The notes under the pieces are model-generated. The model was not told the origin of the DNA and did not search any database. It worked only from the letters and a program-made list of their open reading frames with translations. From the NCBI RefSeq assembly GCF_003334785.1, contig NZ_QOWV01000011.1: a DNA stretch of 64,000 nt. The stretch is one strand, 5' to 3'. Position numbers and translations under genes: made by a program. This document shows positions 1 through 48,206 of this stretch, piece by piece. Source of the DNA: Escherichia coli (GTDB lineage Bacteria > Pseudomonadota > Gammaproteobacteria > Enterobacterales > Enterobacteriaceae). Every line of letters begins with the position of its first letter. The first letter of the stretch is position 1.

Positions 1-1371
1 GGCGAGCGTGAAGTGCGCGATATGTACGGTTTGATTCCGGTTGGTCTGCCGGATGAACGTCGTCTGGTGCTGCCGGATGACTGGCCGGATGAACTTTATC
101 CGCTGCGTAAAGACAGCATGGATTATCGTCAGCGTCCGGCACCGACCACCGATGCTGAAACCTACGAGTTCATCAACGAACTGGGCGACAAGAAAAACAA
201 CGTCGTGCCGATTGGTCCGCTGCACGTCACTTCTGATGAACCGGGCCACTTCCGTCTGTTCGTCGATGGCGAAAACATTATCGACGCCGACTACCGTCTG
301 TTCTACGTCCATCGCGGCATGGAAAAACTGGCGGAAACCCGTATGGGTTATAACGAAGTGACCTTCCTCTCTGACCGTGTGTGCGGGATCTGCGGCTTTG
401 CCCACAGCAACGCCTACACCACGTCGGTGGAAAACGCGATGGGTATTCAGGTGCCAGAACGTGCGCAGATGATCCGCGCCATTCTGCTGGAGGTAGAACG
501 CTTGCACTCGCATCTGCTCAACCTTGGCCTGGCCTGTCACTTTACCGGCTTCGACTCCGGCTTTATGCAGTTCTTCCGCGTGCGTGAAACCTCCATGAAA
601 ATGGCAGAGATCCTTACCGGTGCGCGTAAAACCTACGGCCTGAACTTGATCGGCGGGATTCGTCGCGATCTGCTGAAAGACGACATGATCCAGACCCGCC
701 AGCTGGCACAACAGATGCGTCGTGAAGTGCAGGAGCTGGTGGATGTGCTGCTGAGCACTCCGAACATGGAACAGCGCACTGTCGGCATTGGTCGTCTGGA
801 CCCGGAAATCGCTCGCGACTTCAGTAACGTCGGCCCGATGGTCCGTGCCAGCGGTCACGCCCGTGATACCCGCGCCGATCACCCGTTTGTCGGCTATGGC
901 CTGCTGCCAATGGAAGTCCACAGCGAGCAGGGCTGCGACGTTATTTCCCGTCTGAAAGTGCGTATCAACGAAGTCTATACCGCGCTGAACATGATCGACT
1001 ACGGTCTGGATAACCTGCCGGGTGGCCCACTGATGGTGGAAGGCTTTACCTACATTCCGCACCGCTTTGCGCTGGGCTTTGCCGAAGCGCCGCGCGGCGA
1101 TGATATCCACTGGAGCATGACCGGCGACAACCAGAAGCTGTACCGCTGGCGCTGCCGTGCCGCGACCTACGCGAACTGGCCGACCCTGCGCTACATGCTG
1201 CGCGGCAACACCGTTTCCGATGCGCCGCTGATTATCGGTAGCCTCGACCCTTGCTACTCCTGTACCGACCGCATGACCGTGGTCGATGTGCGTAAGAAGA
1301 AGAGCAAAGTGGTGCCGTACAAAGAACTCGAGCGTTACAGCATTGAGCGTAAAAACTCGCCGCTGAAATAA
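1..1371 (+). CDS. hycE: Hydrogenase-3 large subunit HycE, C-terminal part (5' end lies outside the window)
   Basis: Frame open from position 1; NiFe large-subunit motifs (RVCGICGFAHS, C-terminal DPCYSCTDR) plus C-terminal tail; followed by hycFGHI. Confidence 0.95.
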   Translation, partial: GEREVRDMYGLIPVGLPDERRLVLPDDWPDELYPLRKDSMDYRQRPAPTTDAETYEFINELGDKKNNVVPIGPLHVTSDEPGHFRLFVDGENIIDADYRLFYVHRGMEKLAETRMGYNEVTFLSDRVCGICGFAHSNAYTTSVENAMGIQVPERAQMIRAILLEVERLHSHLLNLGLACHFTGFDSGFMQFFRVRETSMKMAEILTGARKTYGLNLIGGIRRDLLKDDMIQTRQLAQQMRREVQELVDVLLSTPNMEQRTVGIGRLDPEIARDFSNVGPMVRASGHARDTRADHPFVGYGLLPMEVHSEQGCDVISRLKVRINEVYTALNMIDYGLDNLPGGPLMVEGFTYIPHRFALGFAEAPRGDDIHWSMTGDNQKLYRWRCRAATYANWPTLRYMLRGNTVSDAPLIIGSLDPCYSCTDRMTVVDVRKKKSKVVPYKELERYSIERKNSPLK

Positions 1372-45003: not shown

Positions 45004-45186
45004 GATTCGTATTTCCGTTTAAAATGAAGATACGGCGCGATGATACGCGTCGGGTTGTCTCTCTGTTGATACAGAGATACTAGATGTAGTTGAAAAAAGA
45101 TTCAACCACACAATATATAGCAAATAGTGGTCGAAATTACCCTGGATATGAGCGTGACGGGGTAGGGGGATTTTTGTGATTCACCA

Positions 45187-45219
45187 GGCAAAAAGAAACC
45201 CCGAAGACAGGCTTCGGGG
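45187..45219 (-). terminator. Rho-independent terminator downstream of ygaM
   Basis: ccccgaag-acagg-cttcgggg stem, T-rich tail on minus strand. Confidence 0.7.
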
Positions 45220-45250
45220 TCAAAGACGCGTATTTATTATCATTTTTGCA

Positions 45251-46112: not shown

Positions 46113-46562
46113 TCAGGCTTTTACCTGCTGGTAACGGCTGACTTTAAACAGTCGGCGGCAATAATCGAGGAAGTAGCCATAAACCGCCCCCATCAACATC
46201 GAAACAACGATGTTTGAACTGACCGCCGCCATAATCTGATGCCAGTCTGCGCCCACCACTAACAAGATCGCCACATACACCGGTGACTGGAACGTCACAT
46301 AAGCCAGGATATCCGCCAGATTTTTTATCCAGCCCGACGGGCTAACTTTGCGTGCCGCGCGCATAAACAGATCACGGTACATACCGTATGGCCATGCAAT
46401 TAAGATGTTCACCGGAATCGCTACCAATCTGGAATAAAAAGACTGTTCGAAGCTCATTCCGGAGAGGAAAACTTCAATACACATGTTCACGACAGAACAG
46501 TAAACAACCATCGCGAACGTATCTGCAACTGCATGACGCAAGCGTGACTGCGGTGAGAACAT
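46113..46562 (-). CDS. alaE: L-alanine exporter AlaE
   Basis: 149 aa membrane ORF. Confidence 0.88.
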
Positions 46563-47230
46563 GCTAATGCTCCTTAATAAAAGCGTAATGGGATGTTAAT
46601 GGAGATGAAAGCAGTGGATCTCATTGCCATCTGCATTTTCGCATAGCGTATATCGCTGGCTATGACTAATCAATTAGTGAAAAATTTTTATTTAGTCAGT
46701 TTTTGTAGATAAAATATTCCGTAACGGCTCGTTTTTTGTACATTGTGGATTTTTACATGCCGATATGATTTATTTTTAATTAAATCAATTAGATATGGCC
46801 TTACCTTTAATATCACTAATGAAAGTTTGGGGGTGAGGTAACGCTATAAGCGTAGAGAATTCGGTGTATGTAGTAGCTGGGTCATTTTCAGCATTTTTTA
46901 TGCCAGACAATGTACATTAACAGCAGAAAGCACCAGTGATGGATGTTTTCTTTTATTCTGTTATATTGCATTTTTATTCACTTTGATTTTGTCAGGCTTG
47001 CGGAATTAGCGAGCAGAGAGCGCCGCTCTGTTCACCAATAATCTAAATTACTCATCAAAATGGCTAATATATAATCTTGAAATTATTCTGAGAGTTTCAG
47101 AAAATAACAGCTGAAATAATCTCGCGCAGGACTGTAAATAGATTAAATTTTGTGGAAATATAATAAGTGATCGCTTACACTACGCGACGAAATACTTTTT
47201 TTGTTTTGGCGTTAAAAGGTTTTCTTTATT

Positions 47231-47635
47231 ATGTCCGTAATGTTACAAAGTTTAAATAACATTCGCACCCTCCGTGCGATGGCTCGCGAATTCTCCATTG
47301 ACGTTCTTGAAGAAATGCTCGAAAAATTCAGGGTTGTCACTAAAGAAAGACGTGAAGAAGAAGAACAGCAGCAGCGTGAACTGGCAGAGCGCCAGGAAAA
47401 AATTAGCACCTGGCTGGAGCTGATGAAAGCTGACGGAATTAACCCGGAAGAGTTATTGGGTAATAGCTCTGCTGCTGCACCACGCGCTGGTAAAAAACGC
47501 CAGCCGCGTCCGGCGAAATATAAATTCACCGATGTTAACGGTGAAACTAAAACCTGGACCGGTCAGGGCCGTACACCGAAGCCAATTGCTCAGGCGCTGG
47601 CAGAAGGTAAATCTCTCGACGATTTCCTGATCTAA
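47231..47635 (+). CDS. stpA: H-NS paralogue StpA
   Basis: 134 aa, H-NS family C-terminal motif TWTGQGRTP. Confidence 0.96.
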
Positions 47636-47681: not shown

Positions 47682-48206
47682 TCAAGCTCGTTGGTTCCAC
47701 GGCATCTTATCTAACAACCTTGCCATTCCACAAAAACCGCTGATTCCTGCAAACAGTAACCCGGCACCAACAAAGCCACTTAATAAGAAGAAACCGCTAT
47801 TTACGGTATAACCCAGTACAACGCCGATTAATATTAAACCACCCGCAGCGATCTGCACCTGGCGCATTAACGGCAAGGGTTGAGATTTATTTACCGCTAC
47901 TGGCAATCCTGCTTTTTTCCAGCCATCAATCCCATCTTCGAGTAAAAAGATTTCTGCGGGGGCGGCAATCGCTGCTAATTTATCGGCATTATTACTGGTG
48001 CGTTTACCTGCCTGGCAGTGGAATATAATTTGCTCGTGACGTAATTTAGCCGGAAGACCTGACTGTTCCAGCACGGATAATGGAGCCAGATCTGCTTCAG
48101 GAATATGTTCACGAAGATATTCATCAGCATCACGAATATCGATTAACTTTGCGCCGCGTGCGATTAATTCTTGTGCATCATGCGGCGAAATGGTTGTCAA
48201 AGCCAT
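47682..48206 (-). CDS. ygaP: Rhodanese-domain inner membrane protein YgaP
   Basis: 174 aa, rhodanese active-site Cys in FHCQAGKR plus C-terminal TM helices. Confidence 0.9.

Follow-up and report, generated by a model that had tools for sequence, protein, structure and literature searches.

We find that the intergenic spacer between the divergent genes alaE and stpA of Escherichia coli is very probably a compound, bidirectional transcription-control region without a gene of its own, and that sequence conservation is limited to its two ends. The window in which it was analyzed is a 64,000-nt stretch of contig NZ_QOWV01000011.1, to which all coordinates refer unless MG1655 is named. alaE occupies 46113–46562 on the minus strand and stpA 47231–47635 on the plus strand; because alaE ends at 46562 and stpA begins at 47231, the spacer spans exactly 46563–47230, or 668 bp. 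Byte-identical DNA is found in MG1655 at 2798496–2799163 (MG1655 coordinate = 2845726 − window coordinate), and the current RefSeq record of MG1655 holds no CDS, RNA, or other feature in that interval. The spacer is real and ordinary, and it is already known, since the locus itself is a published member of the Lrp regulon with an H-NS-bound spacer. The anatomy, the conservation, the promoter hexamers, and the lack of an RNA or small-ORF signal described below come from our own comparison, and binding and regulation by Lrp and H-NS come from reports by others.

The GC content of the spacer is 0.338 compared with 0.51 for the window, and only 2.3% of 668-bp segments are equally AT-rich. No gene-free gap of the window is longer on a crude gene map, for which open reading frames (ORFs) of 90 aa or more were taken, and the longest ORF inside the spacer has 42 aa. 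A/T tracts of at least four bases number 22, which is 33 per kb as opposed to 10.6 per kb across the window; shuffles matched in composition contain 11 ± 2.9 of them, and none of 1000 shuffles reached 22. In a wedge-model prediction of curvature, four peaks in the spacer exceed the window’s 95th percentile, and the highest of these, at 46717, lies at the 99.7th percentile. A preliminary description of this DNA, which had pictured a 668-bp AT-rich and ORF-poor spacer between divergent alaE and stpA, with A/T tracts and curved DNA, is borne out by these results, for curvature at the level of prediction. Elsewhere in the window, the only other stretches as AT-rich are found within 58750–61850, including two ORF-free gaps at 59330–59870 (GC 0.31) and 60201–60714 (GC 0.34), and the strongest predicted curvature of the whole window is at 60641.

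The spacer is found in 5417 of 5426 complete E. coli genomes. Across the family, a scan for AlaE with one genome per species returned 80 loci in Enterobacteriaceae, and stpA is the divergent neighbor of alaE in 58 of these 80, with spacers of 475–789 bp and a GC content of 0.31–0.43. Rare E. coli strains carry IS1 in the equivalent spacer (L082, NZ_AP027759.1; L083, NZ_CP172108.1). In one IS1-bearing strain, IS1B sits ~160 bp upstream of alaE and splits the alaE control block from the remaining spacer, and in another, IS1X2 has deleted the 5′ end of alaE together with the alaE-proximal half of the spacer.

The comparison of the 80 species divides the spacer into three parts: an alaE side of ~240 bp, a center of ~260 bp, and an stpA side of ~80–170 bp. 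Conservation was measured in an alignment of 59 sequences, and the four-fold degenerate sites of alaE, with a mean pairwise identity of 0.49, served as the neutral yardstick. Mean pairwise identity is 0.64 in the alaE-proximal zone (46641–46800), where blocks in 46675–46718 reach 0.75–0.85, and it is 0.15 in the center (46801–47060), which has many indels. Toward stpA, it is 0.23 in a distal zone with islands kept in Escherichia (47061–47150), and 0.51 in the stpA-proximal zone (47151–47230). The conservation of the alaE side, at 0.64–0.85, exceeds the synonymous-site level given by the four-fold sites.

On the alaE side, conservation points to a core promoter on the minus strand at 46645–46673, with TTGATT (46673–46668) as the −35, a 17-bp spacer, and TACGCT (46650–46645) as the −10. 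The pattern TTGnnn-17 bp-TAnnCT occurs upstream of alaE in 77 of 80 species and always with a spacing of 17 bp; it sits at −115 to −98 from the alaE ATG, and is almost absent elsewhere in the upstream 260 nt. From this conserved promoter, we infer that alaE transcription starts near 46638, which would give a predicted 5′UTR of ~76 nt (46563–46638, minus strand) with the Shine-Dalgarno sequence AAGGAG at 46570–46575. The AGGAG of this ribosome-binding site is invariant in 21 genera, and the remaining 5′UTR shows little conservation and no consensus structure. Adjoining the −35 on its upstream side is a near-invariant A/T block (46674–46725), in which AAATAAAAAT, an UP-element-like sequence, is followed by CAGAGTATTTTATCGACAAAAAG-type sequence that is Lrp-like as well as H-NS-motif-like. 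The pairwise identity of the block is 0.75–0.85 vs. 0.49 at alaE four-fold sites, and the top predicted curvature peak of the spacer (46717) falls inside it. Drawing on the literature for the assignment to Lrp, we propose that this block is the Lrp activator site.

The promoter and the block travel together with alaE. An HMM of the ~82-bp segment that holds them matches all 80 alaE species loci plus the MG1655 copy (81 of 81 searched), and in full-length loci the segment ends ~60–80 nt before the alaE ATG. Promoter and block are also found upstream of alaE in 22 species in which stpA is not adjacent, which assigns the block to alaE. Among the genera without stpA beside alaE are Kosakonia, Silvania, and Superficieibacter (for example, loci L041, L045, and L072), and in such genera the distance of the promoter block from the ATG is unchanged. 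RNAalifold found 0 consensus base pairs in the 240 nt upstream of alaE across 21 genera, and so the conservation there is at the level of DNA. The distal part of the conserved control region (46726–46800) contains a conserved ATTGATTT at 46783–46790. Ihara and colleagues reportedly observed in 2017 that alaE needed 240 nt of upstream DNA and that 180 nt were insufficient, and they are said to have placed an Lrp footprint on alaE at −161 to −83. Such a footprint would presumably coincide with the conserved alaE-side zone.

On the stpA side, a promoter region is assigned to 47139–47181 on the plus strand, again from conservation, with TGGAAA (47153–47158) as the −35, a 17-bp spacer, and TACACT (47176–47181) as the −10. 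The −10 pattern TAnnnT is invariant in 21 genera, and TGGnnn-16..18-TAnnnT is found at −82 to −72 from stpA in 47 of 59 sequences. With their hexamers at 16–18 bp, the two promoters form a divergent sigma-70 pair that is conserved in position (77/80 species for alaE, 47/59 sequences for stpA). The conserved hexamers predict a start of stpA near 47188 (about −43). In Salmonella, the stpA 5′UTR is 83 nt long according to Fröhlich et al., from TSS maps made by dRNA-seq (PMC5137417), and a TSS at −83 translates to about 47150 in E. coli. We flag this mismatch between a TSS at ~−43, as given by the conserved promoter, and one at −83, as mapped in Salmonella: transcription of stpA from more than one start is plausible, and stpA probably has at least two starts, or else one of the promoter or TSS assignments is wrong. 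TAGATT at 47139–47144 is a possible upstream −10 that would fit the Salmonella TSS.

The predicted stpA 5′UTR (47188–47230, plus strand) carries GCGTTAAAAG at 47209–47218, the counterpart of the site at which the sRNA SdsR pairs, and this pairing site is kept in Escherichia, Salmonella, and Citrobacter. On Salmonella stpA, SdsR protects −22 to −13 (PMC5137417). Further upstream, islands conserved within Escherichia at 47059–47124 (plus strand) include AAATGGCTAATATATAATCT with a perfect TATAAT at 47070–47075 and GTCAGGAAATAACAG-TGAAATAAT; these islands are candidates for a distal stpA promoter or for Lrp sites, and a consensus scan gave a promoter-like match at 47077–47105. No consensus RNA structure was found on the conserved stpA flank (0 pairs in RNAalifold). 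In the tables of Adams et al., an ORF-internal 3′ end lies within stpA, ~252 nt into the gene, at window position 47483 (plus strand; MG1655 2798243), and it could reflect premature termination or an mRNA processing site.

Regulation of this locus has been studied before, and Lrp is its dominant known regulator. It has been shown that Lrp activates alaE in response to L-Ala and L-Leu (PMC6801825). In the ChIP data of Ziegler et al., Lrp forms strong peaks at the promoter of alaE, and alaE was slightly repressed in minimal medium and strongly activated with leucine, isoleucine, and valine (PMC10127797). The same work describes a double ChIP-seq peak of Lrp at stpA-alaE and activation of stpA by Lrp, and purified Lrp bridged the stpA-alaE fragment by AFM unless leucine was present (PMC10127797). 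A second Lrp peak was located beyond the spacer, inside ygaP (47682–48206, minus strand) and more than 1 kb away; it bridges to the spacer, and its removal cut Lrp-mediated stpA activation more than 5-fold (PMC10127797). Transcription of stpA is Lrp-dependent in minimal medium, is raised by osmotic and temperature upshift, and is silenced by H-NS (PMC4668568). In addition, Shimada et al. in 2014 applied Genomic SELEX, in which the stpA/alaE spacer bound RpoD holoenzyme in vitro and yielded an H-NS site (PMC3946193). The promoters given there are sequence predictions, which we placed in the window by eye: TTTACA-17-TTTAAT in the stpA direction (46753–46781, plus strand) and GTGATA-17-TCTAAT in the alaE direction (46818–46790, minus strand), the latter reaching 18 bp past 46800. 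Neither set of hexamers is conserved outside E. coli.

Consensus motifs for the two regulators are too degenerate to place sites, and scans with them are at chance level in such AT-rich DNA. The Lrp consensus YAGHAWATTWTDCTR has three matches in the spacer, each with 3 mismatches (46644, 46693, and 47076), and 99 across the window vs. 80 ± 10 in shuffles. The H-NS motif TCGATAAATT has one match in the spacer, with 2 mismatches, at 46706–46715; across the window its 88 matches are a modest excess over shuffles (68 ± 8), none of which reached 88. The high-affinity form of the H-NS motif is merely approximated, by TAGATAAAAT in E. coli and by TCGATAAAAT in other genera. The bases taken here as contacts of Lrp and H-NS are putative. 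The preliminary description had the spacer bound by both H-NS and StpA. The H-NS part agrees with the reported site (PMC3946193) and with silencing (PMC4668568), and for StpA we found no report of binding. It had also foreseen multiple promoters, in line with the conserved alaE and stpA promoters and with a plausible further start of stpA. As an H-NS-bound, curved, multi-promoter regulatory region, the spacer was therefore largely read correctly, but that reading omits Lrp, the main documented regulator, and overlooked that conservation is confined to the two ends.

From these observations and reports, the following working of the spacer can be proposed. The alaE module (about 46563–46800) would be a sigma-70 core promoter whose weak hexamers need an activator, and Lrp would bind the near-invariant, intrinsically curved A/T block upstream of it, activating alaE when alanine or leucine is abundant. 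The stpA module (about 47060–47230) would contain one or more promoters and a short 5′UTR targeted by SdsR, with Lrp as the activator and H-NS as the silencer. Both promoter modules would be compact and constrained in sequence, with weak hexamers dependent on Lrp. Between them, the center (about 46801–47060) would stay long and AT-rich, with H-NS filaments and Lrp octamers or hexadecamers spreading along it at low specificity; curved, and constrained in composition and length, it would suit cooperative H-NS binding, with silencing of at least stpA. Lrp multimers bound at the spacer would bridge to the second Lrp site inside ygaP, over 1 kb away.

The center (46801–47060) is AT-rich (median GC 0.38 in 59 sequences) and variable, with many indels; it is unalignable between genera and divergent even within Escherichia, where it differs strongly among species though their AlaE proteins are 94–99% identical, and some E. 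coli strains differ from each other by 5–7%. Most likely, the center serves H-NS and Lrp as a platform or spacer that is nonspecific in sequence, with the caveat that relaxed constraint would yield the same sequence pattern. On one hand, it might be functionless, a decaying filler (such as the remnant of an old insertion) between two compact promoters, with an AT-richness that reflects mutation bias. An identity of only 0.15 with many indels, spacer lengths that range from 475 to 789 bp, identities of only 93–95% within E. coli, and the toleration of IS1 insertions in rare strains are all in keeping with such decay. However, a low-GC spacer of at least 475 bp is kept in 58 of 58 other species with the stpA-alaE pair, islands in the center are kept within Escherichia, Lrp and H-NS occupancy as well as long-range Lrp bridging have been reported at the locus (PMC10127797, PMC3946193), and the center is without similarity to mobile elements. 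We therefore regard a functionless center as unlikely; it overlaps with our main explanation, because both ends of the spacer remain functional either way. An origin of the center as a mobile-element relic was considered and rejected, as its only matches were a 1.7-kb “phage” resembling host DNA and chromosomes of 4.8–4.9 Mb filed as plasmids; no phage or plasmid relatives of the center were found beyond such mislabeled host DNA. As a matter of labeling, the 1.7-kb record “Escherichia phage ECO95 1-6-1” matches host spacer DNA at its end, and the three “plasmid” records with spacer matches, at 4.8–4.9 Mb, are clearly chromosomes.

The preliminary description had also seen room in the spacer for an unannotated small RNA or small protein, and our searches lent support to neither. 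That the spacer also encodes some lineage-restricted product, either a ~110-nt plus-strand RNA (about 46788–46900) or a near-leaderless 20-codon uORF, seems to us quite improbable. An unannotated sRNA of ~110 nt, specific to the E. coli lineage, would run on the plus strand from the promoter TTTACA-17-TTTAAT (46753–46781) to a hairpin and T-run at 46876–46901. These are the best hexamers in the stpA direction, in a spacer to which RNA polymerase holoenzyme binds in vitro (PMC3946193); a consensus scan gave a terminator-like site at 46876–46892, and in a sliding fold scan the plus strand of 46760–46905 folds better than shuffles (z = −2.9, 1/200), with a further plus-strand window of the center being moderately stable (z −2.2). 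Yet the hexamers and the hairpins of the center are unconserved even within Escherichia, and promoter-like sites are no commoner than in shuffles (3 in the spacer vs. 3.5 expected). A permissive E-value scan of Rfam gave the spacer just two hits, each far under its gathering score (E about 1), and the current MG1655 RefSeq record lists no ncRNA there. Two partial data sets point the same way: as tabulated from Term-seq by Adams et al., the interval that separates MG1655 2798243, within stpA, from 2800533 is free of 3′ ends, and the supplements of the 2011 sRNA screen of Shinhara et al. list no candidate for stpA or ygaW. We therefore consider such an sRNA very unlikely; if it were real, it would be visible only once H-NS silencing is lifted. 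A small protein or leader peptide is, in our judgment, less probable still. The first candidate is the 20-codon uORF on the minus strand (46636 to 46574), and the second is a 32-aa hydrophobic ORF on the plus strand (46943–47041), both of them beginning with ATG. The uORF has a suggestive layout, since it begins near the predicted alaE TSS and its stop overlaps the alaE Shine-Dalgarno sequence, and it is intact with equal length in E. coli, E. albertii, and Escherichia sp. MOD1; if translated, it could make translation of alaE depend on how much charged tRNA is available. It is, however, restricted to the E. coli lineage: three of five other Escherichia lineages have it in broken form, and most genera lack it. 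An ATG uORF of five or more codons occurs upstream of alaE in just 23 of 59 sequences, and these uORFs agree in neither position nor sequence. Among five other Escherichia, the 32-aa ORF has stayed intact in just one. Neither these two nor the other ATG candidates of the spacer are preceded by a Shine-Dalgarno sequence. Every ORF of 10 codons or more is disrupted in one or more of the five other Escherichia lineages, and the MG1655 annotation has no small protein there. Least credible to us, and improbable in the extreme, is that the conserved 240 bp represent a long structured 5′ leader of alaE, such as an alanine riboswitch or attenuator, transcribed from a distal promoter near 46790–46818. 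Conservation of the block is well in excess of that at synonymous sites, the best alaE-direction hexamers of Shimada et al. (46818–46790) would put it in a ~220-nt leader, and alanine induces alaE (PMC6801825). Against this, the RNAalifold result of 0 consensus pairs in 21 genera is joined by the lack of an Rfam family match, the distal −35 falls where the alignment has gaps in most genera, and in 77 of 80 species a TTG-17-TAnnCT promoter sits at a fixed position within the block. Moreover, the conserved −35 has the conserved block on its upstream side, the predicted 76-nt 5′UTR is poorly conserved and lacks a consensus fold, and Lrp already explains the induction by alanine.

Returning to the spacer as a bidirectional control region, its closest counterparts are the feast/famine promoters of Lrp (ilvIH, dadAX, oppA, and livKHMGF). 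With these it shares a weak sigma-70 core beside an extended A/T-rich region bound by Lrp multimers, modulation by leucine and alanine, double ChIP peaks, and DNA bridging; stpA-alaE is itself a published example (PMC10127797, PMC6801825), and we see no difference in kind. It also resembles curved promoters that are silenced by H-NS (proU, bgl, and the autoregulated hns) in its low GC content, phased A/T tracts, predicted curvature peaks, and a reported H-NS site, with H-NS repressing stpA (PMC3946193, PMC4668568). Unlike these, the spacer is core-genome DNA that is conserved across Enterobacteriaceae and not horizontally acquired. With intergenic sRNA and small-protein genes of E. coli it has only the setting in common, a long ORF-poor intergenic region, whereas a conserved promoter-terminator pair, conserved structure, an Rfam match, a reported 3′ end, and a conserved ORF are all lacking.

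Outside the spacer, the data of Adams et al. include a strong “orphan” 3′ end at MG1655 2800553 (minus strand), which corresponds to window position 45173 (plus strand) in the nrdH-ygaM spacer (45004–45250). Upstream of it on the plus strand are the sigma-70-like hexamers TTGAAA (45091–45096) and TATATA (about 45115–45120), and the orphan end suggests a ~45-nt unannotated RNA running toward the 3′ end of ygaM, where nothing is annotated in MG1655. Just outside the ygaM terminator, at 45221–45247 (plus strand), the 23-nt CAAAGACGCGTATTTATTATCAT looks like the seed at the 5′ end of the sRNA MicA. Its Rfam score is 23 bits (E = 2.1) where the gathering score is 41, and the MicA stem-loops are absent; this resemblance is probably due to chance.

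As a discovery, the spacer carries little weight, given that the locus is already a textbook-style case of control by Lrp and H-NS and of Lrp-mediated DNA bridging. What the comparison adds is a clear divide between ends that are constrained in sequence and a center that is constrained in composition only. New in detail are base-level candidates for the core promoters of alaE and stpA, and a ~80-bp block of promoter plus proposed activator site that accompanies alaE in 80 species. The alaE mutations mentioned in a valine-evolution paper (Nat Commun 2026) are coding only. These details of promoter and block could guide promoter mutagenesis or the engineering of alanine export.
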